Source: Escherichia phage UE-S1 | Strand: one strand, 5' to 3' | Length of the DNA stretch: 64,000 nt | Sequence record: ON568341.1 | Shown: positions 32,528 through 55,451 of the stretch, in pieces | Numbering within the stretch: the stretch's first letter is position 1 | How the letters are laid out: each line of letters opens with the position of its first letter | Position numbers and translations under genes: made by a program | Notes under the pieces: generated by a model | What the model saw: the letters and a program-made list of their open reading frames with translations, nothing else | Told to the model about the DNA's origin: nothing | The model's database searches: none

Positions 32528-33005
32528 TGTGAAATGTAATCTCAATGCAGTTGTTTATGCAATCAATTGTGGTGTAGATATCCAGTACTTACAATTACAG
32601 GAAATTGATGAACCTGAAAGGTTAAAATTTAATGATAACTGTAAAAAATTTGGCTTAGAACAACGTATGCTGGATTATACGATAGAACATGATAAAAATC
32701 ATGAACTTTGGCGTTATGATCCAGTGTATGATAATATAAATCTTCGTGATTATTTTTTAGAAAAATGTACTTCAGATGAAGCACGAAAACGTGTTGAATA
32801 TGAACTTGATTTATATGAATATTATAATATGACAAAGCTATTGAGGTGTATGATATGGCTAGTCGATTATATGGAAGAAAATAAGATCTTTTGGGGTCTT
32901 GGGCGTGGAAGCTCTGTTGCATCGTATTGTTTGTTTTTGATTGGTCTACATATGGTAGATTCATTGAAATATGAACTTGATGTTAATGAATTTTTGAAAT
33001 GGTAG
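32463..33005 (+). CDS. small protein resembling a fragment of the DNA polymerase III alpha (DnaE) palm, lacking catalytic Asp residues (tentative)
   Basis: C-terminal RVEYELDLYEYYNM ... FWGLGRGSSVASYCLFLIGLHMVDSLKYELDVNEFL parallels DnaE ETELQVINQMGF ... [34 protein letters not shown]; ORF ends before the PDFDVDF position. Confidence 0.3.
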   Translation: MKRPRRRKMKVQGNRFISPNGDVKCNLNAVVYAINCGVDIQYLQLQEIDEPERLKFNDNCKKFGLEQRMLDYTIEHDKNHELWRYDPVYDNINLRDYFLEKCTSDEARKRVEYELDLYEYYNMTKLLRCMIWLVDYMEENKIFWGLGRGSSVASYCLFLIGLHMVDSLKYELDVNEFLKW

Positions 33006-33023
33006 AAAAACATGTGATATAAT
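32994..33023 (+). promoter_or_regulatory. candidate promoter (TTGAAA-18-TATAAT) with -10 inside an 11-bp inverted repeat
   Basis: TGTGATATAAT (33013-33023) and its reverse complement ATTATATCACA (33039-33049); upstream of gene at 33072. Confidence 0.45.
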
Positions 33024-33071
33024 GTTTGTTACAGAAGCATTATATCACACATACAATAAAAGGATTTTTAT

Positions 33072-33416
33072 ATGTCTAAACACACAACTTATCGTGGTAC
33101 AACTATTGATATGGATATGCTCAAGTACCAAAACCAATACCAAGTTGCATTAGGTAACGCAAACCTAAATGCACGCGGTGACAAAATTGGTTCCGGTGGT
33201 ACAATTGTTAAAACTCGTGAAGAGTTACTACAAGAAAAAGAACGAGAAATGCAAATTCCTGATTATATTCCTGAGCATCAACTTCATAGTACTGAGCATA
33301 GTACTGAAGATGTATGGGATGATGAAAGTTTTGAAGTTAAGCCTGAAGAACAAGAAGCTAAGGTTTCCGAAGAGAAGAAAGCACCACGTCGAGCTAGAAC
33401 CAAAGATCAGGAGTAA
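33072..33416 (+). CDS. hypothetical protein (114 aa)
   Basis: ORF with acidic C-terminal half. Confidence 0.45.
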   Translation: MSKHTTYRGTTIDMDMLKYQNQYQVALGNANLNARGDKIGSGGTIVKTREELLQEKEREMQIPDYIPEHQLHSTEHSTEDVWDDESFEVKPEEQEAKVSEEKKAPRRARTKDQE

Positions 33417-33424
33417 TATATTAA

Positions 33425-33751
33425 ATGACTAAAAAAGTAATGACAGCATGTAAAGGTAAAGTTTTAGTAACTGAACTTGAACATGGTGAACGTAAAACAG
33501 CAGGTGGTATCGTTTTAACAAACGATGATGGTAAAATTCGAGGAATCCGCTCACGATGGGCGAGAGTTTATTCTGTTGGTGAGGACATTACTGATATTAA
33601 AGAAGGGCAATGGATTTTAATCGATCATGGACGATGGTCCAGAACGATTGAAGTTGATGGTATCAAATTGAACTTAGTTGATTACCCTGCTGCTGTTAGT
33701 TTAGTGTCAGATGAAGACCCTCGAACTAAAATGCTAACATTTGGACGTTAA
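33425..33751 (+). CDS. GroES-like co-chaperonin (T4 gp31 functional analog candidate)
   Basis: KGKVLVTELEHGERKTAGGIVLT and VYSVGED ... IKEGQWIL parallel GroES [20 protein letters not shown] and the mobile-loop/roof regions. Confidence 0.55.
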   Translation: MTKKVMTACKGKVLVTELEHGERKTAGGIVLTNDDGKIRGIRSRWARVYSVGEDITDIKEGQWILIDHGRWSRTIEVDGIKLNLVDYPAAVSLVSDEDPRTKMLTFGR

Positions 33752-33794
33752 TATAATATAATTAAAGCTCGGAATAATTTCTGGGCTTTTTATT

Positions 33795-34076
33795 TTGGAC
33801 ACTTTTATGATAACGGATGATGGAAAATTTAGTTTTAAAGATGTAACATTGATATCAAAAAACGGAAGATTCATGTTTGAAGATAGAAAAAATACCAAAT
33901 ATGTGTATGAAGTTTCCCATGATATGTTTAAGGTTTTATTAGTTGCTGCTGCCCAAGCTGAAAGTACTGGGATTAAAAATAAGGCAAATTCTTTTAATTT
34001 TTTATTTAATCAACTAGAAATGACAGAAGACCTTTTTACGGCTTTATTGTACAATTCAGCCGATTGGATTCTATAA
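33795..34076 (+). CDS. hypothetical protein (93 aa)
   Basis: ORF in track. Confidence 0.4.
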   Translation: MDTFMITDDGKFSFKDVTLISKNGRFMFEDRKNTKYVYEVSHDMFKVLLVAAAQAESTGIKNKANSFNFLFNQLEMTEDLFTALLYNSADWIL

Positions 34077-34101
34077 ACACGTACACAGAAGGAAATATAA
34101 A

Positions 34102-53132: not shown

Positions 53133-53648
53133 ATGTCAATTCCTTATGTTAAAATTATTAACAATATTCTTGATTCTTGGGAAGATGTCATTATTGGTAA
53201 AAAGAAGCCTTTACCCGTTCATGCACTATCTGGAAAACTTCAATTCAGAATGTCAAATAAAACTGAAACGTTTAATAATCATGATATTTGTATTACACTA
53301 AAAACACCTGATTGTATTGTAATTAAAAAAAATAAAGATGATGAATTGACATTATCTATTGGTCGTGATAAAATCATTTTAAATAATTTGTCTGAAGAAG
53401 AATTTTTTCAAATAAGTACTATTATCGACATGAAAGATTTTACATATGAATCGTTGATAGAACTCAATACACGTTTTATCGATATACAGGAACGATTGCG
53501 ACCCATTCTTCGTATCGAAGAAGAAGCTTGGATTGAAAGTATGAATAAGATGCAAGAAATGTTGAAAGAAACTATTAACAATATGGGTCAATCTATTTTG
53601 GACATTGGTAAAACTTTTAAACTCAACTTTTCAAAGGAACGTAAATGA
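53133..53648 (+). CDS. member of FQxST-motif paralog family
   Basis: LSEEEFFQISTIIDM; ATG at 53133 lies after the terminator hairpin. Confidence 0.5.
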   Translation: MSIPYVKIINNILDSWEDVIIGKKKPLPVHALSGKLQFRMSNKTETFNNHDICITLKTPDCIVIKKNKDDELTLSIGRDKIILNNLSEEEFFQISTIIDMKDFTYESLIELNTRFIDIQERLRPILRIEEEAWIESMNKMQEMLKETINNMGQSILDIGKTFKLNFSKERK

Positions 53649-54097
53649 AAATCGATGAACTGATTTATATTTTAGGTAACTTGCATAAAATATTGTTACA
53701 TCGCAACGAGATGAATAAACTAGGATATAATATCTCTAATGTAAATGAAGCAACATTTAAATATAACTCAATCACTGGTGGAAATTATAATATTGTGTAT
53801 TGCTATGAAACGGACCCAGACTGTTACCAACTTACGTTATACTTTTCTCCAACAAACCCAGCCTTTGTTCACGACATATCATCAATATCACTTGACCCAG
53901 ATGGAGAAATGAGTATAGAATATAACTATGATTCTAAAAAAGAATGTTATGTTGAAGATATGAAAAATATGTTTAACGATGAATATGTGTTCCAGCTAAG
54001 TACTGTACATGATGTTGGCAGTACTAATGGACAATTTTGGAATACATGTTATTATCATATGATTGAAATTTGTAAATTACTAAAAGGCGATGATTAA
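53645..54097 (+). CDS. member of FQxST-motif paralog family
   Basis: FNDEYVFQLSTVHDVG. Confidence 0.5.
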   Translation: MKIDELIYILGNLHKILLHRNEMNKLGYNISNVNEATFKYNSITGGNYNIVYCYETDPDCYQLTLYFSPTNPAFVHDISSISLDPDGEMSIEYNYDSKKECYVEDMKNMFNDEYVFQLSTVHDVGSTNGQFWNTCYYHMIEICKLLKGDD

Positions 54098-54480
54098 TGA
54101 AATACAGCATTGAAGTACATTACACTACAGGTGACACTGAAACAGAAGATTCAGTTACCAATACATTGGATGTTCAATGGGAATCAAAGGATGAGGCAGT
54201 TGTAGCATTACAGTCTTTGAAAGAGCATTGGGTATTCTTTAAGAAACTCGATGATGCATATAGTAACGAACGTGCGACCATAATCGATGAAGCCAAACAT
54301 AAAGAATGGTTTGATCCAATGTCATGTGAATTCTCTTTCTTTGTAAAAAATGGAGATGAAAAAATTCCAGTACATACACCGTGGAACGGCTACTTTGAAA
54401 CTCTTCATAATGCACGAGTTATCGCTGTGGATAATCCTGAACAAATCGATTTCGATTCATTGGACTGGAAAAAACTATGA
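54097..54480 (+). CDS. hypothetical protein (127 aa)
   Basis: ORF in track. Confidence 0.45.
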   Translation: MKYSIEVHYTTGDTETEDSVTNTLDVQWESKDEAVVALQSLKEHWVFFKKLDDAYSNERATIIDEAKHKEWFDPMSCEFSFFVKNGDEKIPVHTPWNGYFETLHNARVIAVDNPEQIDFDSLDWKKL

Positions 54481-54920
54481 CAGTACTGCACCAATTGAAG
54501 AAGGTTAAGCATCCAGTTGTATATGAGGACTGGAAACGTCAGAAGCTGATGGGTGACTTTTATTACCCAAAATCTAAAGTACTGGCAACGTCAAAAGCTA
54601 TATACTTGAAATATAAGGATGAAGATTGTTTGTGTATTCAAATGGGATTCCATCCTAAAGTTGGTTTGTTTACATCAAATCAAACATTTTATAAATTTAG
54701 AATTCAAAAAGATACATTTAGTATTCATATCGAAAAGCATGATGTACAAGATACAATTTATCGTGTGGAAAGTGAGCCTTTGAATCTTGTTGAGATTCCG
54801 TACAATAATTTAGAAGAAATGTACTTTCAGCAGTTGACAATACAAGAAGACTTTGGTATGATAGGACTTCAAGAGTTAGAGATGATTAAACAAATTCGTG
54901 ATGTCTACTTTAAGGAGTAA
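54477..54920 (+). CDS. member of FQxST-motif paralog family
   Basis: NLEEMYFQQLTIQEDFG. Confidence 0.5.
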   Translation: MTVLHQLKKVKHPVVYEDWKRQKLMGDFYYPKSKVLATSKAIYLKYKDEDCLCIQMGFHPKVGLFTSNQTFYKFRIQKDTFSIHIEKHDVQDTIYRVESEPLNLVEIPYNNLEEMYFQQLTIQEDFGMIGLQELEMIKQIRDVYFKE

Positions 54921-55080
54921 CTATGCCAGTACGTAACAGTACTTCACGCTTTACGCTTCAACAGAAAGCAGATCTTTTGAATATGGCAAACAAAGATTCT
55001 AATTTTCACTATCTAGTGCTCGGTGGGTCAGTAGAAAAGATTGACCTACGTGAGTGTATGAAATAACAAAAGGGGCTAAA

Positions 55081-55251
55081 ATGAGTCTACGTGAATCATG
55101 GGAACAATTTAAAGAAGAGATTGGTTATCGTGGTGTTAAGATTGAAAAAATCAATCGTTCTGAAAGCATCAAAGCCAGTTCTAATGGCACTACTTATGAT
55201 CGTTATGATGAAAAGTATGGTTTGCATTCTAACCCGAAGGATAGTGAATAA
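55081..55251 (+). CDS. hypothetical small protein
   Basis: Track ORF 55054-55251; ATG at 55081 after AAAGGGG. Confidence 0.35.
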   Translation: MSLRESWEQFKEEIGYRGVKIEKINRSESIKASSNGTTYDRYDEKYGLHSNPKDSE

Positions 55252-55390
55252 TGGTATACACTAACATTTTTACTGGTATTATGCGTAAATTTATTAATGG
55301 TACTGGATACGTATCCAATGACAACGGTAGTACATGGGTAAAAAATAATACGTCTGAATCTTTAGTAAAAAGTCTTCCGTATTATAAAGC

Positions 55391-55419
55391 TTGACACATG
55401 AAAATGGAGTATGTATAAT
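55391..55419 (+). promoter_or_regulatory. consensus promoter (TTGACA-17-TATAAT) with -10 in a short hairpin
   Basis: TTGACA 55391-55396, TATAAT 55414-55419; GGAGTAT (55406-55412) pairs with ATACTCC (55418-55424). Confidence 0.55.
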
Positions 55420-55451
55420 ACTCCTATATTAATTAAACGAGGATATACGAA

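Follow-up and report, generated by a model that had tools for sequence, protein, structure and literature searches.

Promoter-overlapping hairpins in an Asteriusvirus jumbo phage resemble the promoter-early stem-loops of T4-type phages

An inverted repeat that takes in the −10 box of a promoter raises the question of what the repeat is for: whether it acts on the transcript arriving from the upstream gene, serves as an operator, or is a fortuitous product of A+T-rich DNA. Four such sites had been predicted in a 64,000-nucleotide stretch of Escherichia phage UE-S1 (record ON568341.1; hereafter, the window) and ascribed to a single recurrent promoter design with a common initial transcribed sequence. 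This DNA belongs to a jumbo phage of the Asteriusvirus type (121Q/PBECO4 group; approximately 92% identity). Orthologous sites were compared in phages 121Q, ph0011, Turkey3/TH47 and JNE01, and in Klebsiella phage Muenster, while genome-wide counts were taken, alongside the window, from a close relative whose genome is complete.

The strand bias of the promoter motifs suggests that they are real. Matches to TTGACN-N15-19-TATAAT number ten on the + strand of the window and none on the − strand, against 1.2 expected; combinations of promoter, ribosome site and ORF in the relative's complete genome are biased 90:1. Promoter activity and start sites are predicted features. The −35 and −10 boxes are of the sigma-70 type, lie about 17 bp apart and occupy the short interval from the stop codon of one gene to the ribosome site and start codon of the following gene. 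At the six hairpin-promoter sites described below, the intergenic spacers measure 52-98 nt, and in five of the six the −35 begins between −15 and +8 nt relative to the upstream stop codon. Upstream of the −35, A+T content (mean 0.70 versus 0.67 in the background) was not significantly raised (p = 0.066).

Reading the sequence confirmed every arm of the four predicted inverted repeats, as well as the location of the −10 hexamer in or between the arms: at 33018 (5′ arm), 39096 (loop), 40313 (loop) and 55414 (loop and 3′ arm). All four promoters are on the + strand. At site 1 (32994-33023), a −35 TTGAAA (32994-32999) overlapping the tail of the upstream gene, whose stop codon ends at 33005, is separated by an 18-bp spacer from the extended −10 TGTGATATAAT (33013-33023; hexamer 33018-33023). 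The extended −10 is itself the 5′ arm of the hairpin (33013-33049) and pairs with ATTATATCACA at 33039-33049. The stem measures 11 bp, or 15 bp with a 7-nt loop when G-U pairs are included, with an RNA folding energy of −17.3 kcal/mol (z −6.4). The minus-strand copy of the −10 at this site was considered as an antisense promoter and rejected: its critical last T, present in the window, ph0011 and TH47 (TATAAT), is replaced in 121Q (TATAAG) and in both Turkey3 and JNE01 (TATAAC), and no −35 was found for it. Site 2 (39073-39101; TTGACT-17-TATAAT) has an A-tract ahead of the boxes and a hairpin at 39085-39121 with arms TGTGCTGC (39085-39092) and GCAGCACA (39114-39121). Its G+C-rich 8-bp stem closes a 21-nt loop containing the −10 hexamer together with the predicted start site. 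Site 3 (40290-40318; TTGACA-17-TATAAT) agrees with the consensus at 12 of 12 positions and begins 3 nt past the upstream stop codon. Its arms, GTGCGTTTTT (40301-40310) and AAAACGCAC (40329-40337), lie within a predicted intrinsic terminator (40299-40343) made of the stem GAGTGCGTTTTT/GAAAACGCACTT (40299-40339) and a T6 run (40338-40343); the upper helix is A-U-rich and takes in the −10 (z −4.8). At site 4 (55391-55424; TTGACA-17-TATAAT), the −35 includes the upstream TGA stop codon and a 7-bp hairpin (GGAGTAT, 55406-55412; ATACTCC, 55418-55424; z −3.5) lies entirely 5′ of the predicted start site.

The best hairpin enclosing each −10 was compared with those of 500 shuffles in which both hexamers were held fixed. 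The four hairpins exceeded the shuffles with p values from 0.002 (site 2) to 0.01 (site 4). The test was calibrated on TATAAT-like non-promoter control sites, 10 of 200 (5%) of which gave p ≤ 0.04; this same threshold was reached at 7 of 23 promoters in the window (Fisher p = 5e-4). Two more sites, both on the + strand and absent from the original prediction, emerged. One (26243-26277; TTGAGA-18-TACAAT with extended −10; p = 0.006) precedes the topoisomerase gene and has a hairpin ATAACATTG/CAATGTTGT at 26254-26277 overlapping the −10, with a separate canonical terminator immediately upstream (26214-26244). The other (50661-50701; TTGGAA-18-TATAAT; p = 0.04) carries the −10 within the 5′ arm of a hairpin TGCTATAA/TTATAGTA at 50682-50701, and its 5′ UTR is similar to the one at site 1 (ACAATA..AAAAGGATTTT.ATATG). 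In the close relative, 16 of 90 promoters gave p ≤ 0.05 against 4.5 expected, and a −10 hairpin is present at 13 of 56 intergenic promoters. Thus, hairpins over the −10 are real, but the notion of a single recurrent design was over-unified: they are limited to some 20-30% of promoters, the remaining 16 of the 23 promoter-like window sites showing no −10 hairpin signal above shuffles, and their geometry varies from site to site. Among the four predicted sites, stems are 7-15 bp and loops 5-21 nt long, and the placement of the −10 differs.

Comparison with relatives showed that, at identities as low as 74%, most or all of the Asteriusvirus clades keep the hairpins, while the loops vary. The four predicted sites all persist at syntenic, collinear positions that do not coincide with indels, and three of the four have compensatory changes. 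At site 1 the 3′ arm TTATATCAC is retained in 121Q, ph0011 and Turkey3/TH47 and has one mismatch in JNE01; the loop varies in sequence and length, with 14-17 nt between the arms. At site 2, a C:G pair is replaced by U:A in Turkey3/TH47 and by a U-G wobble in JNE01, and in Muenster (66% identity) that phage's own −10 is enclosed by a stem of 9-11 bp whose sequence differs in part. Two compensatory pairs were found at site 3, the counterpart of which in phage G17 carries an ARNOLD terminator annotation; in Muenster the corresponding junction between genes is occupied by a plain terminator and lacks a promoter. The stem of site 4 is shifted in register in JNE01 (GGGAGTA/TACTCCC). In this same phage the 26254 hairpin has different arms (CGTCAA/TTGATG) and still forms an inverted repeat around the −10, and the 50682 hairpin, retained in four of five clades, has a 10-bp stem.

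Stem-loops also occur at other positions relative to the promoter boxes. Two + strand promoters of the TTGACA-17-TATAAT type have one in the spacer: that at 22105-22133 contains a 5-bp stem, AGAAC-N4-GTTCT (22110-22123), which is invariant across four clades that differ in the loop, and that at 57798-57826 contains ATTCT-N5-AGAAT (57803-57817), found in Turkey3 in the compensated form GTTCT/AGAAC. In the close relative, 26 of 56 intergenic promoters have a significant stem-loop, lying upstream of the −35 (6 cases), over the −35 (6), over or around the −10 (8) or downstream of the −10 (6). Hence all five positions described for PeSLs (promoter-early stem-loops) are represented, four in the relative's genome and the spacer class in the window; the −10 overlap seen at our sites is one of the five.

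The sequence said to be shared past the −10 proved genuine in a subset of promoters. The four strings listed originally are correct, and TATAATRTTTRT has four matches in the window, each at a + strand promoter, against 0.4 expected; however, there is no general element, as no column downstream of the −10 exceeds about 0.4 bit across all 23 promoter-like window sites. The shared sequence matches the consensus TATAATGTTTTACATC of a cassette family in the relative's genome, in which about 20 copies of AAAAAGTACTTGCA-N17-TATAAT GTTTTACATC are accompanied by a Gn-loop-Cn stem-loop. It marks a promoter subfamily and probably reflects common descent or recombination among the promoter cassettes of this lineage rather than a separate functional element. 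The 5′ half of site 2 (AATACTTGAC...CGTATAATGTTTATCAC) resembles this repeated early-promoter cassette, and a promoter at 57890-57924 (+ strand; TGGACA-17-TATAAT, with TGTGATATAAT) has the shared ATTTGTTAT past its −10 and, in the window, no −10 hairpin. Copies of a repeated promoter cassette in the window lie at 63004-63045 (+ strand; TTGATT-16-TATAAT GTTTGTATC), at 63413-63442 (degraded, without a −10) and at 63484-63520. Since the middle copy is intact in ph0011, where it precedes an 80-codon ORF absent from the window, the breakpoint of the window indel (63421-63492) must fall inside a cassette copy; this is the one clear case of a cassette associated with an indel. Self-comparison showed no mutual similarity among the four predicted sites over about 100 bp, the likenesses found being 27 nt between site 1 and position 62454 and that between site 2 and the cassette.

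Could the hairpins terminate upstream transcription while overlapping a restart promoter, as originally proposed? Several features fit this idea: they begin 3-25 nt past the upstream stop codon, they are conserved with compensatory changes at three of the four predicted sites, and site 3 has a T-run and terminators at its counterparts in G17 (as annotated) and Muenster. A proper U-tract is nevertheless missing at sites 1, 2 and 4. Taking as the mark of an intrinsic terminator at least 5 U in the 8 nt directly after the stem, we counted 6 of 8 at site 3, and 2 at site 1, 4 at sites 2 and 4, 1 at 26254 and 2 at 50682. Among the sites, only 40299-40343 therefore reads as a canonical terminator, and for lack of the U-tract termination at sites 1, 2 and 4 is conjectural. 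Site 2 would also make a poor terminator because of its 21-nt loop, and the 26254 hairpin seems unnecessary for termination in view of the strong terminator just upstream.

The sequences observed, which are more frequent than chance would allow and are conserved with covariation, and the relative's cassette family nonetheless lead us to regard these sites as, probably, composite promoter/stem-loop cassettes of the PeSL type, with predicted promoter, start-site and termination functions. Gene packing would be so dense that each new unit has its sigma-70-type promoter starting at, or at most some 15 nt from, the previous stop codon; with little room for a separate element, a hairpin acting on the upstream transcript would be written over the promoter. 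A polymerase coming from upstream would transcribe both arms, allowing the hairpin to fold and either terminate (site 3, with its U-tract) or attenuate transcription or form a protective 3′ end (sites 1, 2, 4, 26254 and 50682). A polymerase starting at the embedded promoter would begin inside or past the hairpin. The 5′ arm is always upstream of the predicted start site, so that the resulting RNA would lack this arm and be unaffected.

The missing U-tracts at five sites, the complete terminator preceding the 26254 hairpin and the conserved, compensated stems also accord with hairpins that act on RNA without terminating, as 3′-exonuclease barriers or processing signals that set and stabilise the upstream 3′ end after cleavage. 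The overlap with the promoter would then come merely from want of space. We find this alternative rather unlikely: site 3 is a canonical terminator, and RNase III needs stems longer than the 7-11 bp seen here. In favour of operator sites, at which a dimeric phage or host regulator would bind over the −10 and switch the promoter off or on, are the classical repressor position of the palindromes and the five occurrences of TGTGATATAAT in the window. This reading fared badly, and we judge it very improbable. No half-site is common to the six sites, arm spacing changes among site 1 orthologues and, across the sites, spans 4 to 21 nt, and the arms covary through compensatory substitutions, their sequence not being preserved; the recurrent TGTGATATAAT is an extended −10 (TGn-TATAAT) that is also found at promoters without an inverted copy (57908, 62461).

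Action at the DNA level would have supercoiling extrude a hairpin or cruciform that shows or hides the −10 and so tunes initiation, by analogy with phage N4. The −10 does lie in an A+T-rich loop at sites 2 and 3, and an automated count of mismatches (9 G-T versus 10 A-C) favours neither strand. Yet loops of 17-21 nt would be costly to extrude, the position of the hairpin relative to the −10 is variable, this phage group is reported to use the host polymerase with a phage sigma factor, and the T-run of site 3 has meaning in RNA only; we give this reading very little credence. Least of all do we believe in a chance origin, for which it can be said that TATAAT is nearly self-complementary, that inverted repeats arise unselected in DNA of 67% A+T, that the A+T-rich arms of site 1 and 50682 reuse the −10 itself and that most promoter-like sites do not rise above shuffles. 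For the six sites listed it was rejected: shuffle and real-sequence controls were exceeded, the hairpins persist across five clades while loops change, and the stems carry compensatory changes.

Within the composite-cassette reading, a bolder and in our opinion unlikely extension is that a −10 and start site held in a conserved hairpin loop (sites 2 and 3; position 263768 of the relative's record) form a selected "self-insulating" switch and not a by-product of crowding. If so, one 40-bp stretch would close the upstream unit and open the following one, and the hairpin, as RNA or extruded DNA, would make the output of the embedded promoter depend on how much transcription comes in.

Three known systems resemble parts of this arrangement. 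The virion RNA polymerase of phage N4 recognises promoters that take the form of short conserved hairpins in DNA; our sites share with them an inverted repeat at a promoter, but differ in having sigma-70-type boxes, no stem sequence in common and loops of 4 to 21 nt. Intrinsic (Rho-independent) terminators are matched by site 3, with its G+C-containing stem followed by T6, although the nominal loop there is 17 nt long and holds a promoter −10, and sites 1, 2 and 4 have no U-tract. RpoD-like TTGACA/TATAAT early promoters are on record for the Rak2-like jumbo phages CBB, GAP32 and PA5oct and, like ours, are concentrated in regions of small early genes; the available portions of these reports list promoters and terminators apart, with no physical overlap described there (PMC5259590; PMC7318152). 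The closest known kind is the PeSL, described in the T4-type phages RB49/phi1, T4/PST and KVP40/nt-1 as a succession of stop codon, AT-rich stretch, sigma-70 boxes, stem-loop and ribosome site, the stem-loop being commonest between the boxes or over the −10, so that −10-overlapping stem-loops are already a known subclass (Arbiol et al. 2010, PMC2839356; Comeau et al. 2014, PMC4122927). Promoter and terminator activities of PeSLs were demonstrated experimentally in those phages (PMC2839356; PMC4122927), whereas those of our sites are predictions. PeSL promoters are strong early ones, a role at which the near-consensus boxes and extreme strand bias seen here may hint. Our phage is not T4-type but Rak2-like, a group for which the literature searched yielded no PeSL report. 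Unlike classical PeSLs, the four sites lack mutual similarity over about 100 bp and sit among replication and other conserved genes, not in shuffling hot spots; sites 2 and 3 also differ in having 17-21 nt loops that enclose the predicted start site and the −10 in full. The order of elements is nonetheless that of a PeSL, from the stop codon through boxes about 17 bp apart and a stem-loop with G-T pairs in variable position to the ribosome site and start codon. One window indel has its breakpoint within a cassette copy, and the relative's genome, like those of RB49/phi1, holds a cassette with a Gn-loop-Cn stem, in about 20 copies.

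A search with window 32000-42000 returned 34 complete jumbo-phage genomes that match over the full length at approximately 92% identity. Among them are Escherichia phages PBECO4, 121Q, G17 and phAPEC6 of the genus Asteriusvirus. A second search placed the relatives on a ladder of decreasing identity, from the 121Q group (94%) through ph0011 (86%), Turkey3, TH47 and fEgEco12 (78%) and JNE01 and A4 (74%) to the Klebsiella phages RaK2, K64-1 and Muenster (66%). Nearly all genes of the window lie on the + strand. The first half of the interval 32994-55424 carries replication and conserved genes (topoisomerase, clamp loader, TelA-like protein, metallopeptidase/exonuclease) and the second half numerous small genes without known function, with tRNAs towards the window end. 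Rfam identified only tRNAs in the window. The tRNA set varies among close relatives: Gly, Ser and Arg are found at 61577-62652, and Leu replaces Arg in 121Q (L002 45916-46900); a cluster of indels coincides with this region (61390-62445). The spacer that separates small genes from the tRNA cluster contains a perfect 14-bp palindrome, TCATTATATAATGA (62122-62135), within which TATAAT reads identically on both strands. Approximately 1 kb of the DNA cytosine methyltransferase gene (50961-51979), present in the window and in ph0011 (626 codons) and missing from 121Q and Turkey3 (861-nt gene), may be an intein or other mobile insertion. Diverged tandem repeats occur within coding sequence at 6789-7042 and 13625-13968, one set made of four 69-nt units and the other of four 41-nt motifs spaced by 69-147 nt.

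The original prediction was that promoters of the 32994-55424 interval recurrently have their −10 hexamer embedded in an inverted repeat, namely at 33013-33049 (site 1), 39085-39121 (site 2), 40301-40337 (site 3) and 55406-55424 (site 4). Reading the sequence showed the coordinates of all four repeats to be exact. The promoter pattern itself, TTGACN-N15-19-TATAAT, has ten matches on the + strand of the window and none on the − strand, with 1.2 expected. For 23 promoter-like sites, the energy of the best gapless hairpin spanning the −10 was compared with that of 500 shuffles in which both hexamers were kept fixed. All four repeats exceeded what AT-rich sequence would produce by chance (p=0.002-0.01), and the same test revealed two that had been missed, 26254-26277 (p=0.006) and 50682-50701 (p=0.04), plus one weak case at 1036-1076; at 16 of the 23 sites no −10 hairpin stood above the shuffles. 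Calibration on 200 TATAAT-like intragenic sites lacking a −35 gave 5% at p≤0.04, as against 7 of the 23 promoters (Fisher p=5e-4). When folded as RNA, five of the six hairpins (sites 1-4 and the two additional ones) had z-scores of −3.2 to −6.4 relative to dinucleotide shuffles. Site 2 scored weakly, −1.4 in a 61-nt context; the evidence for this site comes from the constrained test and from covariation. The −10 hairpins are real and go beyond chance.

To obtain a genome-wide view, the complete unannotated genome of the close relative ECO103 4-12-1 (OR844650.1; 351,992 bp) was assembled for scanning. Requiring a promoter, a ribosome site and an ORF yielded 90 coding-strand sites and a single one on the other strand. 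A −10 hairpin with p≤0.05 was found at 16 of the 90 (4.5 expected), including 13 of the 56 intergenic sites. Within the −70 to +30 interval, 26 of the 56 intergenic promoters have a significant stem-loop, lying upstream of the −35 in six, over the −35 in six, over or around the −10 in eight and downstream of the −10 in six.

Conservation was analyzed in the syntenic 36-50 kb of 121Q, ph0011, Turkey3, TH47, JNE01, Muenster and another Klebsiella phage, with alignment of each intergenic region and the shuffle test applied to every orthologue. All or almost all Asteriusvirus clades retain a significant −10 hairpin at the six sites, which is not the case for the 15 further sites tested. Most of these clades preserve the 3′ arm of site 1, TTATATCAC, with one mismatch in JNE01; the loop sequence there varies and the spacing between the 10-bp arms ranges from 14 to 17 nt. 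Site 2 shows a compensated pair in Turkey3 and TH47 (GTGTTGC/GCAACAC versus GTGCTGC/GCAGCAC) and a U-G wobble in JNE01. The counterpart in Muenster, a 9-11 bp stem that differs in part of its sequence (GTGCTGTAT/ATACAGCAC), is likewise arranged around that phage's own −10. The stem and T-run of site 3 are retained everywhere, the stem being longer and compensated in JNE01 (AAGGTGCGTTTCAA/TTGAAACGCACCTT) and reaching 16 bp with a 6-nt loop in 121Q as a result of a 3-nt deletion; the corresponding junction of Muenster lacks a promoter and carries a terminator of the ordinary short-loop type. JNE01 also shows a stem register moved by one at site 4 (GGGAGTA/TACTCCC) and, at 26254, wholly different arms (CGTCAA/TTGATG) that enclose its own −10. 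At both site 2 and site 3, RNAalifold scored two compensated pairs; Muenster was left out of this formal count because its stem aligns in a different register. With five or six distinct sequences, the covariation is modest, yet consistent. Scanning IMG/VR for site 2 orthologues with the 15-mer TAKAATGTTTATCAC returned approximately 120 unrelated contigs and 121Q itself.

The inverted repeats had been proposed to act either as operators for a phage regulator or as terminators of upstream transcription overlapping a restart promoter. A DNA operator is disfavoured by the variable length of the loops, the covariation of the stems and the lack of a half-site common to the sites. Counting stem mismatches as a means to tell the strand gave 9 G-T and 10 A-C when stems could be extended through either kind, an apparent G-T excess being due to extension through G-T alone; a hand count of one-sided changes in the core stems, approximately six G-T to one A-C, is suggestive only. 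The T-run of site 3 is meaningful only as + strand RNA. It is also the only canonical U-tract among the six sites, the rest having one to four U in the next eight bases, and the counterpart of site 3 in G17 is an ARNOLD-annotated terminator. A further terminator-type case, with a T7 tail and both boxes enclosed, lies at position 263768 of the ECO103 4-12-1 record. The hairpin at 26254 directly follows a complete terminator. The −35 is close to the upstream stop codon, starting at a point from 15 nt ahead of it to 8 nt past it in five of the six sites, and the intergenic spacers measure 52-98 nt in total, leaving little space to fit a terminator, a promoter and a ribosome site side by side. The 5′ arm precedes the predicted start at every site, so that RNA from the embedded promoter would be unable to form the hairpin. 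A terminator over a restart promoter is the best-supported reading, firmly so at 40299-40343 only; for hairpins other than site 3, "attenuator" or "3′-end barrier" would describe the predicted structure equally well.

Two other promoter arrangements were considered. The right arm of site 1 is a literal minus-strand copy of the extended −10 TGTGATATAAT, a sequence found five times in the window (0.26 expected). An antisense promoter is nevertheless unlikely, since three relatives have G or C in place of the critical last T of the minus-strand −10. A second promoter class with a TGAAACG −35 is reported for phages CBB and GAP32; the window contains one match, at site 1, a number not significantly different from the 0.5 expected. 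Elsewhere, a good + strand promoter match (TTGACA-18-TAAAAT, 17733-17762) is directed into the 3′ end of the sole minus-strand gene block (17079-18436) and could yield an antisense transcript.

Promoters had also been predicted to share an initial transcribed sequence. Part of this claim stands: TATAATRTTTRT is matched four times in the window, each time at a + strand promoter (0.4 expected), and in ECO103 4-12-1 it is present in 7 of the 59 exact-TATAAT promoters (0.16 expected). The coding strand of that genome has 44 copies of TATAATGTT, the other strand 4. The sequence is not a general one, however. The 23 window sites have no well-conserved column 3′ of the −10, and neither these nor the 90 promoters of ECO103 4-12-1 display a conserved transcribed sequence; the only trend is that T is weakly favoured three and four positions past the hexamer. 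Unusual similarity of the stretch after the −10 was confined to three promoter pairs in the window; the string is invariant at site 2 in all Asteriusvirus clades and drifts at site 1.

A repeated cassette is present in approximately 20 copies on the minus strand of OR844650.1 at ~301,000-321,000 (loci L135/L136). The order is aaaaAGTACTTGCA, 17 nt, TATAAT GTTTTACATC, a Gn-loop-Cn stem-loop and then a ribosome site ahead of a small ORF. Since the predicted start is 5′ of the stem-loop, the latter would make up the 5′ end of each message. The four strings of the original prediction begin like the cassette consensus, three of them scoring p=0.008-0.03 and the fourth, at 63034, not significantly in a gapless comparison; site 2 also has the cassette part AATACTTGAC...CGTATAAT. 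The "shared initial transcribed sequence" is a resemblance within a family of promoter cassettes. A related cassette is present three times in the window, at 63004-63513. Comparing window 63413-63520 with L003 49179-49520 of ph0011 shows an intact middle copy in ph0011, ahead of an 80-codon ORF; in the window this copy is cut straight after TTCAGTAC, without a −10, and the ORF is reduced to a 9-codon remnant. The breakpoint falls within the repeated cassette.

Several other elements were observed. Sites 1, 2 and 3 all have exactly 48 nt between the last base of the −10 and the start codon (33023-33072, 39101-39150, 40318-40367). The 5′ UTRs of site 1 and 50685 have ACAATA..AAAAGGATTTT.ATATG in common, and those of sites 2 and 4 ATATTAA.TTA.ACGAGGA. 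Within 57890-57973, approximately 30 nt beyond the promoter TGGACA-17-TATAAT (−10 at 57913), lies a terminator, CCTCAATGATGAGGG followed by T5 (57954-57973), well ahead of the next gene at 58002. This ~50-nt segment is highly conserved in all Asteriusvirus clades, recognisable in Muenster and without a match in Rfam, and may represent a small RNA or a leader/attenuator. A very stable hairpin at 23251-23307 (15-bp outer and 7-bp inner stems, −20.6 kcal/mol, z −6.5, then T7) lies just 5′ of a gene, with virion-protein genes coming next; its upper part holds GATAAATAT, similar to a late-promoter motif, ATAAATA, that has been reported from Rak2-like phages. The T4 late-promoter sequence TATAAATA is strongly depleted in the window (3 versus 12.9 expected), and one copy (29775-29782) lies just past a terminator in the spacer before a virion structural gene (29821-32214).

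The consulted papers on Rak2-like jumbo phages give promoters and terminators separately (PMC5259590, PMC7318152) or not at all, and a literature search found no transcript maps for these phages. Coinciding terminator and promoter calls in such genomes need not conflict, a rule of use for annotation. The elements would provide compact natural promoter/terminator parts, and the repeated cassette family may underlie gene shuffling in the early region; no general principle is altered by them.

The closest known system is the promoter-early stem-loop (PeSL) of T4-type phages, an intergenic unit in which the upstream stop codon and an AT-rich stretch are followed by near-consensus sigma-70 boxes, then by a stem-loop containing G-T pairs and finally by a ribosome site with the start codon (Arbiol et al. 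2010, PMC2839356; Comeau et al. 2014, PMC4122927). PeSLs have been demonstrated to be strong promoters, effective terminators and mediators of gene shuffling, and those of RB49 and phi1 have Gn-loop-Cn stems (PMC2839356, PMC4122927). The elements of the window agree with PeSLs in layout and in the range of stem-loop positions and, across the lineage, in the existence of a repeated cassette family, PeSL-like and located in the presumed early region of ECO103 4-12-1, and of one cassette-bounded indel. They differ in that sites 1-4 have no mutual similarity over ~100 bp and occupy conserved positions rather than shuffling hot spots, and two of them have very large loops containing the −10. Whereas PeSLs belong to T4-type phages, the present elements are found in Rak2-like jumbo phages, to which the PeSL layout is now extended. 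Judging from their sequence organization, we consider them to be PeSL-like composite promoter/stem-loops, a kind already known.
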